From the UHGV virus genome UHGV-1359708: 11,777 nucleotides of DNA, one strand, 5' to 3'. Under the pieces are notes generated by a model, which was not told the origin of the DNA, did no database searches, and saw only the letters and a program-made list of their open reading frames with translations. A program made the translations under genes and the position numbers. Origin of the DNA: a virus. Positions 3,546 to 11,777 of this stretch are shown here, one piece after another. How positions within the stretch are numbered: the first letter of the stretch is position 1; each line of letters starts with the position of its first letter.

Positions 3546-4934
3546 ATGGCTACTTGGCAAGGAACAAATGGCGGATTGTTGGCTGGTATCGGTGGCGTCA
3601 ACTCAAACGCTCCGAGCGTAAATGACATCGGCAATACGCTTCAGCTTATCAGGCAGAACAATGATATTGAGCGTTCAGGCGCTAACAATGTTGGGCTGAC
3701 TGCTTTGCAAGGCCTTTCAGGTATTGCGGGGGTGTTTCAGCAGGAAAAGCAGGCTCAGCGGCAGAAAGAATTTCAGCAGGCATACGCTAATGCTTATGCG
3801 TCTGGTGATCGCGGTGCTTTGCGTCAGTTGGCTACTCAATATCCAGACCAGATTGAATCTGTTCGTAAAGGCATGGGATTCATTGATGAAGACCAGCGCA
3901 ATTCTATCGGCACCTTAGCGGCTGGCGCCCGTCTTGCATCATCGTCTCCAGAAGCAATGCAATCATGGCTGCAAAACAACGCCAAGGAACTGACTCGCGT
4001 CGGTGTTGACCCTAATAACGTTGCTCAGATGTATCAGCAGAACCCTTCAGGATTTGGTGAGTTTGTTGATCACCTTGGAATGGCTGCTCTTGGTCCGATT
4101 GATTACTTCAATGTTCAGGACAAGATGGCTGGTCGTGAGATTGATCGCGGAAAACTTGCAGAGACAATCCGCAGCAATCAGGCTGGCGAGGCGCTAACAG
4201 CACGAGGCCAGAACATCACGATGCGCGGTCAGGACTTATCTGCTTCTACTGCGCGACGCGGGCAGGATTTGGCAATGCAGCGAGCGTCAACAAGAGGAAC
4301 TGCTGGGAATGATGAGCGTACAGTTCAGTTATCAGATGGCAGAACTGTAACGGTAGGCGGGAAACTTCACGGCGCTGGGGCTAATGCGTTCTACGAAGGC
4401 ATCGACAACGAGGGGAATATGGTTCGCGTTCCTGCCAGTTCAATCGCAGCGCCTGCAACATCGTCTGCATCAGCACAAAACTATGCCATGAAGAAGGATA
4501 TCGACGCGATCGCAAATGCAGACGCTTCTGCTCTCGATTTCATGACAGGAATGACAGGCGGTGCAGGTAATCCAGCAATTGGTGCTGATGTTCGCAGCCG
4601 ATTAACAGGAAAAGAGCAGCGCCAGTTATATAACTCAGCACAACGTATTCAGGGCAGAATGCAGAATCAGGGTGTGGCGGCAGCAAGGGATATGGGTGCC
4701 AGTGGTATTAACACCGTTGCAGAAGCGAAGATGTATTTTCAGGGGATGCCGCAGGTTGACTATTCAAGCCCGGAGGCTATGCAGCAGTCGATTCGTGAGA
4801 TTCAGGAATACACCAACAATTACAATCAACAATATAACGTTGATGTTGGTAAATCTCAGCGGCAGAAATCTCAACCTGCACAGGTATCACAGCCAGCAGC
4901 CAGCAGTAACTTTTCTTCACTATGGGGTGATTAA
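3546..4934 (+). CDS. Ejection (internal virion) protein, P22 gp20-like
   Basis: 462 aa (P22 gp20 is about 471 aa). AAGGGG Shine-Dalgarno at 3536-3541. Second gene of the ejection-protein triplet; Gly/Ala/Gln-rich composition typical of these proteins. Confidence 0.8.
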
Positions 4935-6931
4935 TGGCTAAAGCATGGAAAGATGTTATCGCCTCTCCACAGTATCAGGCGTTAGCACCAGAACAAAAAG
5001 CGCAGGCTCAGGAGCAATACTTCAATGAAGTCGTGGCCCCGCAAGCCGGAGAAAATGCAGAGCAGGCTAAGCAAGCTTTCTATGCTGCCTATCCATTGCC
5101 ATCTGTGCAGCCAGTGGAGACACAGCAACCAGTAGCACAGCAACAACCACAGCAAAGTGGATTTATGTCTGATCTTGGTGAAGCAGTGAAAGAGACTGGT
5201 CGCGGACTGGTGCAGGCTGGCGTGAACGTGGCAAACATACCTGCATCAGTTGCCGATGCTGTAACAAGCGCGGCGGCTTGGGCTGGCGGTAAACTCGGCA
5301 TTAGCGATGGTACATATCAACCAGCGCCACGAGTAACAACGCAGGGATTAGAGCAGGACTTTGGCCTTCAGCAAGGCGCGCTGACTCCACAAACTACAGA
5401 GGGAAGGGTATTTGCTGAAGCATTGCCTTACCTCACTCCTGCTGGCGTTGAGAGGGCGGCTGCACAGGCACCAACACTTGCTGGTCGAATTGCTCAGGGG
5501 GCAACTCGCCTTCTAGCAGAAAACGCAGTTGGATCACTTGCTGCAAATAGTGCGAAAGATGATGCGGAAGCACTCGCCACTGATTTAGGCGTTGGTGTAC
5601 TTGCTGGCGGTGCTATTAACGCTGCCGGACGTGGATTAGGTGCTGCTTATCGTGGCGTTCGTGGTGCTATTGCGCCAGAAGCGCAGCAGGCTATCAGATT
5701 TGCAGAGCGTGAAGGAGTTCCTCTGCACACCACAGACCTGTTACAACCAACTTCCCGCGTCGGAAAAATGGCGCAGACTACAGCAGAAAATATCCCTCTG
5801 GCTGGCACAAGCGGAATGAGAGCAACGCAACAGGAAGCGAGAAGTCAGTTGGTGCAGAGATTTGCTGATAAATTTGGTGAGTATGATCCAGCGGTTGTTA
5901 TTGACAGCCTTAAAGCGAAAACATCAGGAATTCGTCGTGCCGCCGGTAATCGACTGGAGCAGGTTCAGAATGCTATGGCTGGAGTAAACATTCAGCCTGC
6001 ACGAGCAATTCAGCAGATTGATACTGAGATATCTAATCTGCAGAAGCTTGGTAAGGTGGCTGATAACGAGACAATTTCAAAACTTCAGTCCTATCGTGAT
6101 GAGCTTGTTCGCAATGCTGGTCCTGATGGTCCGGTAAATCTGGATTTGAAGCAATTAAGCGATCTGCGCAGCCAGTTCAGAATGGACGTGAAGGGTGAGC
6201 GACCAGTGTTACCAAACCGTTCCGATGCTGCCATTCAGCGCGTTTACAAGGCAATGACCGACGATATCAATGGTGCCATTGGTCAGAATCTTGGCAACGA
6301 TACTCTCCGTAAATATCAGCAGGCCAATGCCGTCTACGCTGACGAAGCGGCTAAACTAAAGAATACCAGGCTGAAGAATGTTCTCATGAAAGGCGATCTG
6401 ACGCCGGAAGTTGTCAACAACATGCTATTCAGCAAGAACAAATCGGAAATTAAGACTCTGTATAACTCAGTTGGTCGTGTTGGCAGGGCGCAAATGCGCA
6501 ATGGCATTATTGGAAAGGCGATGGAGAAATCTGGAGGATCCCCTGACCAGTTCCTTCGGCAGCTTAACATCCTGCAAAACCAGACTGGCATCACATTTAA
6601 GGGGCAGGACGCTGCTTATCTGAAAGGATTGAAAAACTACCTGCAATCCACGCAGCAGGCTGCAAAAGCGGCAGTAACAACACCAACAGGGCAGCAAACC
6701 ATCCCGTTCATTATCGGGTATGGGACGGCAATGAACCCTGCAACAACTGGCGCAGCAGTAAGCTACGGACTTCTTACTCGCGCCTATGAGAGCGAGCCAT
6801 TCAGAAATGCAATGCTCAGAATGGCAAGCACACCACGCGGATCAACAGCGTTTGAGAAAGCCATGCAGCAGGCGCAAAAGGCCATTAACGCCCTGACTCA
6901 GGGGGCCAAGTCTGATGCGTTGTCAGAATAG
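4934..6931 (+). CDS. Ejection (internal virion) protein, P22 gp16-like
   Basis: 665 aa. TAATG stop/start overlap with the preceding gene at 4932-4936. Third and largest of the ejection-protein triplet (P22 gp16 is about 609 aa). Gln/Pro-rich low-complexity segment near the N-terminus (QQPVAQQQPQQSG) and Ala/Gly-rich central region. Confidence 0.8.
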   Translation: MAKAWKDVIASPQYQALAPEQKAQAQEQYFNEVVAPQAGENAEQAKQAFYAAYPLPSVQPVETQQPVAQQQPQQSGFMSDLGEAVKETGRGLVQAGVNVANIPASVADAVTSAAAWAGGKLGISDGTYQPAPRVTTQGLEQDFGLQQGALTPQTTEGRVFAEALPYLTPAGVERAAAQAPTLAGRIAQGATRLLAENAVGSLAANSAKDDAEALATDLGVGVLAGGAINAAGRGLGAAYRGVRGAIAPEAQQAIRFAEREGVPLHTTDLLQPTSRVGKMAQTTAENIPLAGTSGMRATQQEARSQLVQRFADKFGEYDPAVVIDSLKAKTSGIRRAAGNRLEQVQNAMAGVNIQPARAIQQIDTEISNLQKLGKVADNETISKLQSYRDELVRNAGPDGPVNLDLKQLSDLRSQFRMDVKGERPVLPNRSDAAIQRVYKAMTDDINGAIGQNLGNDTLRKYQQANAVYADEAAKLKNTRLKNVLMKGDLTPEVVNNMLFSKNKSEIKTLYNSVGRVGRAQMRNGIIGKAMEKSGGSPDQFLRQLNILQNQTGITFKGQDAAYLKGLKNYLQSTQQAAKAAVTTPTGQQTIPFIIGYGTAMNPATTGAAVSYGLLTRAYESEPFRNAMLRMASTPRGSTAFEKAMQQAQKAINALTQGAKSDALSE

Positions 6932-7040
6932 CTTCGCAAACACCAGGAACGTGCAAAAACCAACTATGTAGAACGCAATGTTCAACAGATCTCTTTGCAT
7001 AGACTCACCTCATAATTAACAAATCATAACTGACATTAGT

Positions 7041-7076
7041 GCAATGCCGGACAGGTTGCATCTTGTCCGGAATTGC
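7041..7076 (+). promoter_or_regulatory. Interrupted inverted repeat / RNA hairpin upstream of the tailspike gene
   Basis: GCAAT-g-CCGGACA (7041-7053), 10-nt loop, TGTCCGG-a-ATTGC (7064-7076). There is no downstream T-tract, so it is not a classical intrinsic terminator. A third TCCGGA copy at 7081-7086 overlaps the tailspike Shine-Dalgarno (GGAG at 7084-7087), so alternative pairing could occlude the ribosome-binding site. Confidence 0.4.
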
Positions 7077-7095
7077 TACGTCCGGAGCAAATTAA

Positions 7096-9276
7096 ATGAC
7101 AGACATTATAACTAATGTTGTAATTGGGATGCCTTCGCAACTCTTCACTATGGCTCGTTCTTTTAAAGCCGTAGCCAATGGCAAAATTTATATCGGTAAA
7201 ATTGACACGGACCCGGTAAATCCTGAAAACCAAATTCAGGTTTATGTGGAGAACGAAGACGGATCTCACATTCCCGTTTCGCAACCAATAATTATTAACG
7301 CTGCTGGCTACCCTGTATATAACGGACAGATTGCTAAGTTCGTAACCGTGCAAGGGCATTCTATGGCTGTGTACGATGCATATGGATCACAGCAGTTCAA
7401 TTTCCCTAATGTGCTGAAGTACGATCCAGATCAGTTATCAGTCATGTTAAATCTATCTTGGCTTCGAGGAATGAATGGATTTTTAGGTGGTGAGGTTTAT
7501 CCTAATAAAATTGGAATTGATGCAAAAATAGGAGACTTAATTCCCGAAGGTGTAAGATTCGTTAGGCTTGATGGCGCCCTTATGATGATGAGCACACCAT
7601 TATCATCACCATTGACAATTACCAGTTATGACTCAACTGTAATTAATGATAATATTGAACTTTACCCAATATCATTTTTTAATGAGGTTAATTCTGGTTG
7701 GAAAATTGCACAAAATGACGCTCAACTTAGTAGACTACTTCCACTATCTGGAAATATCGGGATCGCTTACTCTCCCGTAACTGTAGAAGGTATATTTAAT
7801 ATTCAGGGAGACATCCTCATAAAGCCGTTATTGCCAAAAGTGACGGTAGATTCCAGACAATTATGGCTCAGATCCCCACGGACATGGAACGAATCAAATC
7901 AAGAGTTTGACTATACTCCATATGATATACGCATTGTCGGTAATTTCTTGTTTGATTTTTATCGGCAGAATGCTTCATTTGACCCAGGGGTTGGTTTGGC
8001 CATGCAATCTGCAGGTACACTTGAGCTTTCAGGGTGTGAATTGCAGGGGGCATGGAATAGCAACGTAACGATGGATTATGGGAGATGGGTTCTTGCCGAT
8101 AATCTGTACTCACATGATTGTGGTCGTGGGAAAATTCAAGATCCAGATGGCAGCAACCGAACTGGCATGGCGATCATTGTTAATGACCCCACAGAGGCGC
8201 ACGTCCATCATATCCGTTGCAGAAACACTTGGGCATCATCTTTGTTCTTCTCATCACGTCGCCCAAACCGTACGCTTAATCTTATGATTCACGATGTGAG
8301 CATTAATACCTCTGGTGGTAACGGTTTGCGTATTCAGTCAGACGACCTTGTGAACGGTTATGGTGATGGCACAGCTATCACAAGAGTTAACATAAACGCC
8401 GTTACAATCAAAAACTGTGAAAGCCACGGTCTTCGAGGGAATTTCCGTAATGGAGTAGTTACTGGACTATATGTAGAAAGTTCGAACGCAGGTGTCGCAA
8501 TTGAAGGAGCTAGTGACGTATCCTACGATAACGTTGTTATTCGTAACTGCTCGCAGGGTTTGTTATGCCGCTTCTATCCGGTAGAAAACACAAGGATGCG
8601 TTTTTCTAACTTCTTGATATCAGGTTGCTCTGCTGAAGCTGTTTATTTTTTGAGAAACTCAGCCAATACCACGACTAATCTTGCCGACATCGAGTTTGAC
8701 GGCATTACGATACACGCACTTGCAAATGGTGCAAAAGGGTTTGTTTTCAACGGTGGGCCTGCTGCGGTGCCAACCACAGATTTAACATTAAAAAATGTTC
8801 GCATAGTAGGCGCTTACCCTAACACAGAAAATGGGCATTATATCGTCATCATTAACTGCCGCCACATAGAGGTTGATAATGTGAACTTGAGGGGGTGCAA
8901 TGGAAGCGCAGAATCTTATTTACAAGCACTAGCCACACAGAGTGTTATTGTTAACAGGCTGGTAGCTGTGCAACCATTCGGGACAGTTAACAGGCCAATA
9001 TATACAAATGGTAGTGGTTCTGACGCTATAGTGAACATTACGAACTGTGTGGCCCCTGACACAACCACAGGTAGTATTGGGTACAACCCTGTACCAACAA
9101 AACGTTATGAGGCTAACAACCAGTTTGCCAATAGCTCACAACCTCAGCAGTATCCATTTACCAATTCCGGTGCGTTACGCGGTGGAGACGTAAACACCCT
9201 ATCTACTAAGGATATTGCTAACATAGTGGCAACACTAGTTAACGACATTAGCAATGGCAAATTTGTTGTAAGGTGA
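7096..9276 (+). CDS. Tailspike protein: P22-type head-binding N-terminal domain fused to a divergent parallel beta-helix receptor-binding/depolymerase domain
   Basis: The first roughly 114 residues ([50 protein letters not shown]...[29 protein letters not shown].....NVLKYDPDQ) match the conserved P22 gp9 head-binding domain as I recall it. The remaining roughly 610 residues are unrelated to P22 and show repetitive N/G/V/I-rich beta-helix-like strands (for example [63 protein letters not shown]). GGAG Shine-Dalgarno at 7084-7087. Confidence 0.9.
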
Positions 9277-9278
9277 CT

Positions 9279-10640
9279 ATGATGGCGCGTAGAAACGCGC
9301 TATCATCCTGTACTTTCTTTAAAGATCGGGTAAAAATAGTCATTTTTACATACAATATTATGAATATTTATGAATCATTTTTTACTTATGTGCTACCTGC
9401 GTTGTATGCCATAACATTAATATATTTAAGTGCCGTGTCATTCAAAAAACATGGCGTGTCATTCAAATCTGTTGGGATGTTATTCCTTGTTTTTACTCAT
9501 TTTTTTGGGTATATATCGCTTCCGTTTAGAGTTGGGGCAAAAGTTAGTTCTGCAGAATATATGCCGTATCAATATATAAATGATGTGTCTACGTTGTCGT
9601 TTATTGGTATAGTTTTGTTTTATGTATTCTCTCATACAGCGGCAGGAAGAAATAAAATAACTTTTTCTGATAAATATTTTATTGGTAGCCCAAAATTATT
9701 TGTAAGAACAACGTTGTTTTTAAGTTTTGTTGGAATGATGGCTTTTTATGCTATAAACGGCATATCTTTTAATTCTGATGATTATGCTTTAAAGCTTGGC
9801 GGAAATGCTGGTAGTGGTGTTATTATAATGATAATGTCATCTTTTGTTTCTGCTGTTATAGTGTATGCAATTACATCTGACGATAAGTATGTGTTCGTTA
9901 AATCAATTATAATGTCATTGTTATTTGGGATGGCATATTATGTGCTTATTGGTGGCTCAAGAAATGTAATGTTTTCCGCAATGTTTATTGTTGCTCTTAT
10001 TTGTCACTCTAGAGGCCTAATTGGCATATTGAAGTTAATATGCATAGGCTCTGCGTGCTTAATTCTAATTGGTATAATGGCTATAGTGAGATACTCAGAT
10101 GTTGATATTTCAGAGTCTGGCTCTCTGTTTGGCATTATAGTAAGATATTTAGCTGATAGCGTATCTCCTATCAATTATCAGAGTATAGCTGTTAAATACT
10201 TTAGCAATGATCGCAATGTTGGTGGTATCTATTATTTCTTTACTCAATTTTCAGGGTTTATCCCAAGATTCATATGGCCTGACAAACCAATTGTCACAAT
10301 GAATAGCTCATATTACTTTACCGTGAGTGCTCTTGGTCTTAGCAATGGATTGAATATGGCATCAACTTTGCTTGGGTCATCGCTTGTTATTTTCGGAAAG
10401 TATTTTTTCTGGTGCTCATATGTTATCTCAGGCGTTGTTTTTAGATTTCTTGATAAAATCATATTGATGAGGAGAGTTGGCGTAATACAAATAGCTGCAC
10501 TTATGACAATGCCTTTTTCATTTTTTATGGCAAGGGAGAGCCTTGAATTCTTTTTATTTATTTTCTTAAAAAATATAATAACTGTATCATTTGTATATTT
10601 TTCATATAAGGCAATATACTATATATTGCCTAAAAAATAA
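9279..10640 (+). CDS. Polytopic inner-membrane protein, tentatively a Wzy-like polysaccharide (O-antigen) polymerase or other surface-glycan modifying enzyme; start uncertain (alternative ATG at 9360)
   Basis: Long ORF in conspicuously AT-rich DNA immediately after the tailspike stop (TGA at 9274-9276). AAGGTG at 9270-9275 precedes ATG 9279/9282; the first hydrophobic helix begins right after the in-frame ATG at 9360 (MNIYESFFTYVLPALYAITLIYL). By eye there are at least 10 hydrophobic helix-length segments separated by short basic loops, plus one larger hydrophilic loop (RYSDVDISESGSLFGIIVRYLADSVSPINYQSIAVKYFSNDRNVGG). Size, Phe/Ile/Tyr-rich composition, low G+C and location next to a tailspike resemble phage- or host-encoded Wzy proteins. 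There is no acyltransferase-3 type N-terminal motif and no accompanying gtrA/gtrB. Confidence 0.7.
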   Translation: MMARRNALSSCTFFKDRVKIVIFTYNIMNIYESFFTYVLPALYAITLIYLSAVSFKKHGVSFKSVGMLFLVFTHFFGYISLPFRVGAKVSSAEYMPYQYINDVSTLSFIGIVLFYVFSHTAAGRNKITFSDKYFIGSPKLFVRTTLFLSFVGMMAFYAINGISFNSDDYALKLGGNAGSGVIIMIMSSFVSAVIVYAITSDDKYVFVKSIIMSLLFGMAYYVLIGGSRNVMFSAMFIVALICHSRGLIGILKLICIGSACLILIGIMAIVRYSDVDISESGSLFGIIVRYLADSVSPINYQSIAVKYFSNDRNVGGIYYFFTQFSGFIPRFIWPDKPIVTMNSSYYFTVSALGLSNGLNMASTLLGSSLVIFGKYFFWCSYVISGVVFRFLDKIILMRRVGVIQIAALMTMPFSFFMARESLEFFLFIFLKNIITVSFVYFSYKAIYYILPKK

Positions 10641-10682
10641 AAAACCGCACGCGATAAGCGTGCGGAAGTTCTCATTTATTTT
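10632..10682. terminator. Bidirectional rho-independent terminator between the convergent cargo genes
   Basis: GC-rich hairpin CCGCACGC (10645-10652), loop GATAA, GCGTGCGG (10658-10665). It is flanked by an A-run on the 5' side (10632-10644), which gives a U-tract for the minus-strand transcript, and by a T-rich tail AAGTTCTCATTTATTTT on the 3' side. It lies 5 nt after the + strand stop (10640) and 7 nt after the minus-strand stop (10672-10674). Confidence 0.75.
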
Positions 10683-11180: not shown

Positions 11181-11777
11181 TTAATCAACCTTCCCATCAA
11201 GCCAGTCTGCCCACCACTGCATCATTTCTCTGCGTTTGTCGAGATACTGAGCATGGTTGTATATTCCACGCACAGATCCGCCGTTGGCATGTGCCAGTTG
11301 CACTTCAATAGCGTCAGCAGGCCATTCGTGCTCGTTCATAATTGTGCTGAATTCATGCCTGAATCCGTGACCGCTTTCCAGACCCTCATAGCCGATTTGT
11401 TTGATCACAAGCAGTACAGCGTTCTCGCAAATTGGCTTCTTCTTATCGTTGCGCCCGGCAAAAACAAACTCTGATACTGGTTTGGTGATTGAGCTTAGCG
11501 TAGTGAGAAGTTCAACTACCTGGTCTGACATAGGAACCACATGAATTTTGCGTCCCTTCATCACACTGGCGTCAATGGTGATAATCCTGTTTTCAAAATC
11601 GACGTTCTTCCATAGCATGGAACGAAGCTCTTTTGTTCTGAGGGCTGTGTAGCGTAAAACTTTGGTCGCAATGAGCGATACGATGCTTCCTGAAAATGTT
11701 GCCAGTGCTTTGTTAAATGCCGAGATCTGGTCGGCAGGTAAAAACGGGAAGTTCTTCTTGCGGTATCCCTTCATGGC
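11181..11777 (-). CDS. int: Tyrosine integrase, C-terminal catalytic domain (partial; the N-terminal part lies beyond the window end)
   Basis: The minus-strand ORF runs off the window edge; the ATG at 11774 listed in the ORF track is internal. It contains the hallmark catalytic elements of tyrosine recombinases in order: Arg in ...MKGRKIHVVPMSDQ..., H-x-x-R in ...HGFRHEFST..., and the nucleophile Tyr in ...VRGIYNHAQYLDKRREMMQWWADWLDGKVD (stop at 11181-11183). The C-terminal YNHAQYL..RR.MMQWWAD.LD tail resembles P4/CP4-57-type integrases as I recall them. Confidence 0.85.
   Translation of the reverse strand, partial: AMKGYRKKNFPFLPADQISAFNKALATFSGSIVSLIATKVLRYTALRTKELRSMLWKNVDFENRIITIDASVMKGRKIHVVPMSDQVVELLTTLSSITKPVSEFVFAGRNDKKKPICENAVLLVIKQIGYEGLESGHGFRHEFSTIMNEHEWPADAIEVQLAHANGGSVRGIYNHAQYLDKRREMMQWWADWLDGKVD

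Follow-up and report, generated by a model that had tools for sequence, protein, structure and literature searches.

The window analyzed here, the whole 11,777-nucleotide (nt) stretch of UHGV virus genome UHGV-1359708, was identified as an Sf6-like (P22-like) prophage of Escherichia coli. This report concerns the junction between its gp16-like DNA-ejection protein gene and its tailspike gene. The gp16-like open reading frame (ORF) ends at position 6931 and the tailspike ATG lies at 7096, and these ORF ends agree with the gap of 164 bp described in an earlier reading of the letters alone (the sequence-only reading). A stem-loop lies in the right part of this gap, shortly upstream of the tailspike ribosome-binding site (RBS). 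The left half of the gap is a minus-strand gene, which the sequence-only reading had missed. The gap is therefore not an empty spacer but a compact two-strand module, and its features are collected in Table 1.

Table 1 Features of the gp16-tailspike junction. Positions are those of the window.
Feature	Position	Strand	Basis or remark
gp16-like DNA-ejection protein gene (Sf6 gene 13 homolog)	4934..6931	+	ORF list; 3' end under Sf6 gene 13; last gene before the gap
Unannotated small ORF, 25 amino acids, MQRDLLNIAFYIVGFCTFLVFAKLF, one hydrophobic span	6923..7000	-	Converges on gp16 and overlaps the gp16 stop codon
Shine-Dalgarno GAGGTGA of the small ORF	7005..7011	-	4 nt before the ATG (7000-6998)
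-10-like hexamer TATGAT, candidate	7023..7028	-	22 nt upstream of the small-ORF ATG; no convincing -35; missed by the consensus scan
5' arm of the conserved stem-loop, GCAATGCCGGACAGG	7041..7055	+	Sequence, folding, relatives
Loop TTGCAT	7056..7061	+	Loop sequence differs between lineages, no conservation
3' arm of the conserved stem-loop, CTTGTCCGGAATTGC	7062..7076	+	Sequence, folding, relatives
Third GTCCGGA copy	7080..7086	+	Overlaps the tailspike Shine-Dalgarno GGAG (7084-7087)
Tailspike gene, 726 amino acids; P22 head-binding domain at residues 1-113	7096..9276	+	

Between 6700 and 7400, which spans the 3' end of the gp16-like gene, the gap, and the tailspike gene's 5' end, the window was 95% identical to Shigella phage Sf6. 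The matching part of Sf6 comprises gene 13 (the homolog of P22 gene 16), the gap, and the start of tailspike gene 14. A 167-bp gap query (6932-7098) was found with 100% identity in three complete E. coli chromosomes, and at least 80% of it was present in 141 of 5,426 E. coli genomes, in every case at a prophage junction. The window shares with P22 the genomic slot between gene 16 and the tailspike gene inside the late operon, which in P22 holds the ant moron (immI region), and the last approximately 15 nt before the ATG (GGAGCAAATTAAATG) are homologous. The window differs from P22 in having neither mnt, arc, ant, sar, and sieA nor the U-tailed terminators. No ORFs for mnt, arc, or ant were present in the 164-bp gap, where the space is too small for them, so that gap size and ORF list, compared with the P22 annotation, bore out the absence of immI claimed earlier. 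Sf6 had already been placed among the phages lacking the 'ant moron' (Villafane 2008, PMC2629481).

Comparison with other P22-like phages revealed a mosaic organization. In IME10, Gally, and VSe13, homology with the window stopped at 7001/7002. In HK620, CUS-3, N7, Sf101, and others, it began only at 7081-7089; similarity to the tailspike leaders of HK620, CUS-3, and the P22 type thus has its left edge at the third GTCCGGA copy. Directly upstream of that junction, HK620 and CUS-3 carry the U-tailed tANT terminator and an annotated 'boundary sequence'. Since homology breakpoints flank it on both sides, the hairpin lies within a segment of about 80 bp that is specific to the moron-less phages.

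The inverted repeat at 7041-7076 had been reported by the sequence-only reading with exact coordinates and sequence, as had the third TCCGGA at 7081-7086 overlapping the GGAG. The stem is a stack of 15 pairs with a G.U pair and a G7046xA7071 mismatch, one of each, and it ends 7 nt before the tailspike Shine-Dalgarno (SD) sequence; the position of the hairpin relative to SD and ATG was constant across three lineages. A predicted folding energy of -20.9 kcal/mol was obtained for the 36-nt hairpin alone. For an 81-nt segment containing it, the value was -24 kcal/mol (z = -2.8), better than that of shuffled controls, a comparison proposed with the original description. Among the local inverted repeats of the window, the hairpin ranks in the top two for strength. 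An AU-rich single-stranded stretch (7001-7040) lies directly upstream of it. As to an intrinsic terminator, a G+C-rich stem-loop was present, while the U-run directly after the stem was lacking: no T-run followed the stem on either strand, and UACGUCCGGAG comes next. Scans of both strands of the gap for sigma-70 promoters and intrinsic terminators yielded nothing. Sequence and terminator scan agreed in this respect with the earlier remark that there is no T-tract and that a terminator is the less likely reading. A search of 6800-7250 against Rfam (E up to 10) gave no riboswitch-like match, the best matches (at most 14 bits, E > 5) all being implausible eukaryotic families.

Relatives of the hairpin were gathered from E. 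coli genomes, from pattern scans of IMG/VR, metagenomes, and GTDB genomes, and from phages BTP1, g341c, NM-3, BIS08P22, and HF4s. The hairpin was found in about 103 loci as 26 distinct 36-nt variants, which belong to an Sf6 type, a BTP1 type (Salmonella), and an HF4s type, with identities between lineages of only about 64-70% inside the hairpin. On the plus strand, all 26 variants were predicted to adopt the same fold, with energies from -15.7 to -27.3 kcal/mol and a single exception at -11.4; the reverse complements reached only -6.5 to -22 kcal/mol. When the three lineages were aligned (27 distinct sequences, alignment A4), 93.1% of the cells in paired columns were paired, compared to 88.5 +/- 0.8% in shuffled alignments, and the covariation score was 0.149 compared to 0.089; none of 500 shuffles reached either value. 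In the Sf6 type, pair 10-27 (A4 columns 22-39) is formed by G-C or G.U, and in the other two types, BTP1 and HF4s, by C-G or U.G. A second compensatory change was seen at pair 9-28 (columns 21-40), which is A-U in sequence L093. The alignment of relatives suggested earlier as a check for compensatory changes has in this way revealed a conserved main hairpin with two covarying pairs. The non-Watson-Crick cells were strongly asymmetric between strands: 61 G.U cells, spread over seven pairs, stood against only one of A.C. The G.U pair at columns 23-38 was retained in 26 of the 27 sequences. This asymmetry points to an RNA helix on the sense strand of the late operon, rather than to a DNA palindrome or a minus-strand RNA.

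Because one between-lineage event and one singleton drive the covariation, the shuffle statistics are inflated by relatedness, and a divergence test was therefore added. The window hairpin was mutated at 11-13 random positions with a transition:transversion ratio of 2. The random mutants had mean energies of -6.4 to -6.9 +/- 3.2 kcal/mol, whereas real relatives differing at 11-13 of the 36 positions had energies of -15.7 to -21.6 kcal/mol, values matched by only 0.02-0.9% of the random mutants. On the minus strand, the same test was mostly non-significant (4-57%), except for a near-perfect KBN10P-type variant. As judged from these alignments, it is the pairing of the hairpin rather than its sequence that is under selection, and this holds for the plus strand alone.

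P22-type loci were searched with a covariance model comprising the hairpin and the RBS. In P22, L, HK620, CUS-3, Gally, VSe13, E. coli W, and phiKp_30, the stem remained unaligned, and the matches came from the conserved RBS flank. P22-type leaders do have a shorter hairpin of 7-8 bp about 17 nt before the SD, which may or may not be homologous to the window hairpin. Examples lie at 2230-2260 in the phage L locus (L057), about 1470-1490 in the HK620 locus (L003), and 1850-1870 in the phiKp_30 locus (L063); one of them reads GCCGTAGC-CAC-GCTGCGGC, and plus-strand G.U pairs occur here too. A hairpin directly before the tailspike RBS may be general in P22-like phages. Two E. coli loci showed a further rearrangement. 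In L010 (strain 1916D6) and L011 (strain LD39-1), two different HNH endonuclease genes (841-1263 and 775-1284, respectively, both on the minus strand) are inserted in antisense orientation immediately after the first five codons of a P22-type tailspike gene, and the hairpin, the RBS, and the first codons are left as a stub (MTDII*). The downstream tailspike gene of L010 has its own RBS and a divergent head-binding start; the fetched stretch of L011 ends before any downstream tailspike gene.

The small minus-strand ORF was intact in 103 of 111 fetched loci, where it encodes 35 protein variants of 23 or 25 amino acids. In both size classes, its ratio of non-synonymous to synonymous polymorphism (pN/pS) was 0.28 in frame, whereas the two other frames gave 0.5-2.1. 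Most upstream contexts have an SD-like motif ahead of it, as in the L, BTP1, and E. coli W types (GGAGGATTT-ATG); the motif is weaker in the majority Sf6 type (GAGATGA), and Gally and VSe13 have only AAGG. The -10-like stretch upstream was invariant in the Sf6-type alignment and reads TATAAT in BTP1. IME10, Gally, and VSe13 have in common with the window a homology block whose limit is exactly the start codon of the ORF. Homologs were recognized at the protein level in phage L (MNRDLLNFAFLIFGIVVGRLLFA; L057 1437-1508, minus strand), BTP1 (MERDLLNFVFLIFGLVVGKLLFA; L058 1637-1708, minus strand), HF4s, and Klebsiella phage phiKp_30; the DNA of the L, BTP1, and phiKp_30 homologs was much more diverged, with no or weak blastn similarity. 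Searches of Pfam, NCBIfam, and PHROG with the 25-residue peptide gave no matches, and none of seven peptide variants was found by exact look-up in a collection of 15 billion proteins. By tblastn, the ORF was located in nine phage records and was unannotated in all nine. A conserved short reading frame, an RBS, a hydrophobic span, and purifying selection together are the features of a small membrane-protein gene. While conservation of the ORF was observed directly, a membrane-associated function of the 25-residue peptide encoded by the left half of the gap is what its sequence suggests.

A close known counterpart of this arrangement is the STnc6030 locus of Salmonella prophage BTP1. STnc6030 was described as a 786-nt 'antisense RNA' with the role of a superinfection-exclusion factor (Owen et al., 2020, PMC7067206). 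When expressed from a plasmid, it completely blocked infection by BTP1 and left P22 unaffected; it did not reduce the yield of BTP1 upon induction, which the authors flagged as unexplained (PMC7067206). They classed it as non-coding because no ORF exceeded 60 amino acids (PMC7067206). Both junctions consist of the gp16 stop, the minus-strand small ORF, a spacer of about 40 nt, the 36-nt hairpin, and the tailspike RBS, in a gap of 155 nt in BTP1 and 164 nt in the window, with about 65-70% identity across the gap. In D23580 coordinates, STnc6030 extends over 403942-404727, gp16 over 402294-404261, and the tailspike gene over 404417-406402 (PMC7067206 supplement). The small ORF mapped to 404250-404321 and the hairpin to 404362-404397, both inside STnc6030. 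The promoter of STnc6030 (TTGAAT-17-TTCAAT), located 310 nt inside the tailspike gene, is where the two loci part: the equivalent in the window is CTGATA-17-TTCAGC, which is not conserved.

Stem-loops between cistrons of an mRNA set differential stability or processing in several operons, among them papBA, puf, malEFG with its repetitive extragenic palindromic (REP) sequences, and the RNase III sites of phage T7. The hairpin of the window is a conserved intercistronic stem-loop and so an element of a known kind: a stable sense-strand hairpin between two cistrons of a long operon, with no terminator tail, with an AU-rich single-stranded neighbor, and with pairing conserved over sequence. It differs from REP elements in being present as a single copy confined to this prophage context, and from a classical RNase III site in being short (15-17 bp). 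The sequence at 7041-7076 specifies a stable hairpin in the plus-strand RNA of the late operon; where P22-like phages lack the ant moron (Sf6, BTP1, and HF4s types), this hairpin forms their tailspike leader. In the computed folds, the structure is static: it forms first during transcription, its arms are then locked together, and the RBS of the window sequence is left mostly single-stranded. Its role would probably be exerted at the mRNA level, by insulating the tailspike RBS from its surroundings, by protecting RNA ends after endonucleolytic processing, or by both. In the second case, a processed tailspike message could bear it as a cap-like hairpin at the 5' end, or it could block the 3' end of the upstream cistrons, and the AU-rich stretch at 7001-7040 would offer a natural entry site for RNase E. 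Predicted SD accessibility in the window was 0.66 for the wild type and 0.28-0.35 when either arm was shuffled, which suggests that the intact hairpin neutralizes sequences able to occlude the RBS. We give this reading as a whole, a static conserved late-mRNA stem-loop with a putative role in the leader, a probability of about one half.

Several observations weigh against it. In L010 and L011, the hairpin stays with the left-hand module where the tailspike module has been replaced, so its client may be something other than the tailspike gene. Within the Sf6 type alone, 94.5% of the cells are paired, there are no double-sided changes, and nothing exceeds the shuffles; eight of the 14 Sf6-type hairpin variants contain an internal mismatch. 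The covariation consists of one between-lineage swap and one change in a single sequence. In the BTP1 and HF4s contexts, predicted SD accessibility was lower than in the window even with the hairpin formed, and the idea that the hairpin keeps the RBS open is a possibility from folding models that lacks generality across lineages. Finally, no part of the gap is more polymorphic among Sf6-type prophages than the stem core with its CCGG stretches (hairpin positions 7-11 and 26-30, window 7047-7051 and 7066-7070), which exceeds the remainder 4-5-fold: eight of its ten columns were polymorphic (nucleotide diversity pi 0.235), compared to 36 of 156 elsewhere (pi about 0.03-0.06; Fisher p = 4e-4). 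Such hypervariability could reflect weak constraint; it may also be that the rest of the gap is more constrained, or that a quasi-palindrome is mutation-prone. Restriction-site avoidance and Dcm deamination were considered as causes of the variable CCGG core, but several of its changes are transversions. In the third copy, position 7083 (C, T, or A) varies much like the stem core.

The position of the BTP1 hairpin inside STnc6030, a transcript abundant in lysogens, raises the possibility that the hairpin is the sense partner of an antisense system. An STnc6030-like minus-strand RNA would bear the complementary hairpin, and the loops would come into contact, as in CopA/CopT or P22 sar/ant, just upstream of the tailspike RBS. 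In cells expressing the antisense RNA, this would control tailspike translation or cause the late mRNA to be cleaved by RNase III. Free variation of the loop is expected under this model, because the partner is always the complement encoded by the same DNA. The minus-strand hairpin is, however, much weaker, with a stability mostly at chance level, and complementarity over the full length would make a special kissing hairpin needless. Over-expression of STnc6030 left the BTP1 induction yield unchanged, and the -10 of its promoter is replaced by TTCAGC in the window. We regard an antisense partnership as unlikely.

To a similar degree, it seems improbable that the hairpin is a functionless relic, that is, a recombination scar or 'boundary sequence' left by loss of the ant moron and kept by linkage to the small ORF and the tailspike RBS. 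Its location exactly between the mosaic breakpoints 7001/7002 and 7080/7081 would suit a relic, as would the annotated 'boundary sequences' of CUS-3 at the same junction and, in the Sf6 type, the lack of compensatory changes, the frequent internal mismatches, and the hypervariable core. What argues against a relic is that the structure persists in three lineages at about 30-36% divergence, far above random mutation and on one strand only, whereas neutral decay is expected to be equal on both strands.

A DNA-level role fits the strand asymmetry poorly. The palindrome might be an operator or promoter element of the small ORF, bound by a dimeric protein and overlapping the -35 of a minus-strand promoter with TATGAT (7028-7023) as its -10. 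A -10-like hexamer is conserved 22 nt upstream of the small-ORF ATG in both lineages, the P22 neighborhood carries the Mnt and Arc operators, and the symmetric swap of G-C to C-G would also suit co-evolving half-sites. The persistent half-site differences, on the other hand, keep RNA pairing through G.U yet break DNA symmetry, the G.U pair found in 26 of 27 sequences being one of them. There is no recognizable -35, the scan did not call a promoter, candidate repressor genes are absent from the gap and its vicinity, and the sequence is unlike the Mnt and Arc operators; asymmetric half-sites likewise set it apart from operators of that type. An operator is accordingly quite improbable.

The sequence-only reading had proposed a switch, in which the third TCCGGA could become an alternative partner of the 5' arm, with the tailspike RBS sequestered as a result; the equivalent pairing of the 3' arm was considered here as well. 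The complementarity it invokes is present in the window, and the drop in predicted SD accessibility upon arm shuffling indicates what a freed arm could do. Main-hairpin pair probabilities, however, were 0.99-1.0 in contexts of 81, 131, and 229 nt, and the pairings of either arm with the third copy had probabilities of at most 0.0003 each. Forcing the third copy to pair with the 5' arm cost 5.5 kcal/mol (-18.5 versus -24.0), and with the 3' arm 4.1 kcal/mol (-19.9 versus -24.0). Transcription order also favors the main hairpin, which is transcribed in full before the third copy exists. In the alignment of relatives, neither alternative helix showed covariation. The flip of pair 10-27 in the BTP1 and HF4s lineages was not followed by the third copy, which kept its C, so that the alternative helix is interrupted in its middle; each alternative helix had a broken pair in all 13 BTP1- and HF4s-type sequences. 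Even within the Sf6 type, position 7083 is C, and the third copy intact, in only about half of the sequences. The switch model is close to refuted. Of the element described earlier, a structured and conserved plus-strand RNA that is not a terminator has stood, and the switching mechanism has fallen away.

It is just as doubtful that a weak or factor-dependent terminator or attenuator has replaced the P22 tANT and sets readthrough into the tailspike gene: the hairpin does occupy the tANT position of HK620, CUS-3, and P22, a region of P22 thought to modulate tailspike expression through termination (Villafane 2008, PMC2629481), but no U-tract follows the stem in any of three lineages (UACGUCC, UGUACC, UGCGCC), the terminator scan was negative, and late transcription is antiterminated anyway.

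Further candidates were tried and rejected. The hairpin is not a REP element, a miniature inverted-repeat transposable element (MITE), or a bacterial interspersed mosaic element (BIME): the 331 matching places in the 5,426 E. coli genomes were all homologous prophage junctions, with a median of one per genome, and consisted of the full gap or of its left part alone without the hairpin. No homology of the hairpin to the tMNT or tANT of HK620 was found. A plus-strand ORF of 23 amino acids (7044-7115) that starts in the 5' arm has no SD, and its ATG is lost in the HF4s type (GCAACGC). A minus-strand ORF of 107 amino acids (7036-7359) is not conserved in BTP1, where it is split into ORFs of 41 and 56 amino acids.

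The shared architecture of the two loci also bears on how STnc6030 works. The four single-nucleotide polymorphisms (SNPs) that confer escape from STnc6030 (404041-404078) are non-synonymous and fall in codons 583-595 of BTP1 gp16. Escape of P22 from SieA, its inner-membrane exclusion protein, maps to gp16 residues Gly532 and Pro546 (Leavitt et al., 2023, PMC10461980). In an alignment of P22 and BTP1 gp16 (35% identity), these correspond to residues 576 and 589; the latter lies inside 583-595, and the former seven residues away. The alignment places the STnc6030- and SieA-escape sites in or next to one short hydrophobic, glycine-rich segment of gp16. In P22, moreover, sieA is found at the place of the small ORF and in the same orientation, so that it converges on gene 16 directly past the stop of that gene. 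Both SieA and the small-ORF product are predicted membrane proteins, though SieA has 162-164 amino acids and three predicted transmembrane domains, compared to 23-25 amino acids and one hydrophobic span. In the versions compared, Owen et al. (2020) and Leavitt et al. (2023) do not cite each other. A 2025 review still treated STnc6030 as an asRNA (antisense RNA), and no follow-up was found in the literature searched.

Taken together, the location of the ORF, the overlap of the escape sites, and the sieA slot make it plausible that a peptide, not antisense pairing, excludes phage via gp16. We tentatively propose that the 23-25-residue peptide could be the true effector of STnc6030, a minimal SieA-like inner-membrane blocker of gp16-mediated DNA delivery. 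In the same tentative proposal, the peptide and the 3' end of its target gene might be passed on together as a single module, and the role of the plus-strand hairpin would be to keep the tailspike leader functional where both strands are transcribed. The distance from the STnc6030 transcription start to the stop of the ORF is 478 nt, near the approximately 480-500-nt bands seen on Northern blots (PMC7067206); this match is suggestive only, as processing at the hairpin fits about equally well. In the window, two candidate starts for an STnc6030-like transcript can be named, the TATGAT at 7028-7023 and a weak match at 7319->7291 (TATACA-17-AATAAT, 7291-7319, minus strand). The latter lies 195-223 nt inside the tailspike gene and is the sole minus-strand sigma-70-like match near the gap; it is partly conserved in relatives, possibly through coding constraint alone.

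Outside the junction, a gene for a WzyE-like O-antigen polymerase of 455 amino acids (9273-10640, plus strand; PF06899, E 8.8e-19) overlaps the tailspike stop codon. It is likely a lysogenic-conversion gene paired with the tailspike, which in its receptor-binding part is unlike the tailspike of Sf6. Besides the hairpin, the strongest inverted repeat of the window, with 21-nt arms and the core AGGCAATATA/TATATTGCCT, lies at 10598-10642 at the 3' end of the polymerase gene and may be a bidirectional terminator, given that a T-run and an A-run flank it on opposite sides. An integrase fragment is located at 11181-11774 on the minus strand.

With the hairpin, a conserved cis-element is added to the late operon of phages that have been studied in depth, and the 'moron-less' gene 16-tailspike junction of Sf6 and BTP1 is seen to be an old arrangement under selection rather than the mere scar of a deletion. 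The interest of the locus is raised by the hidden small gene beside the hairpin and by the bearing of that gene on a published exclusion system: the small ORF is conserved in phages of Shigella, E. coli, and Salmonella as well as in a Klebsiella phage, and the RNA that contains it was published as a non-coding exclusion factor. Were the peptide the effector, the paradox stated by the authors of STnc6030 would be resolved, since incoming BTP1 would be excluded with no effect on induction of the resident prophage. It would also explain why all escape mutations are non-synonymous changes in gp16, in the segment aligned with the SieA-escape sites of P22. A peptide of 23 amino acids that targets the ejection protein would, in that case, suffice for phage exclusion.

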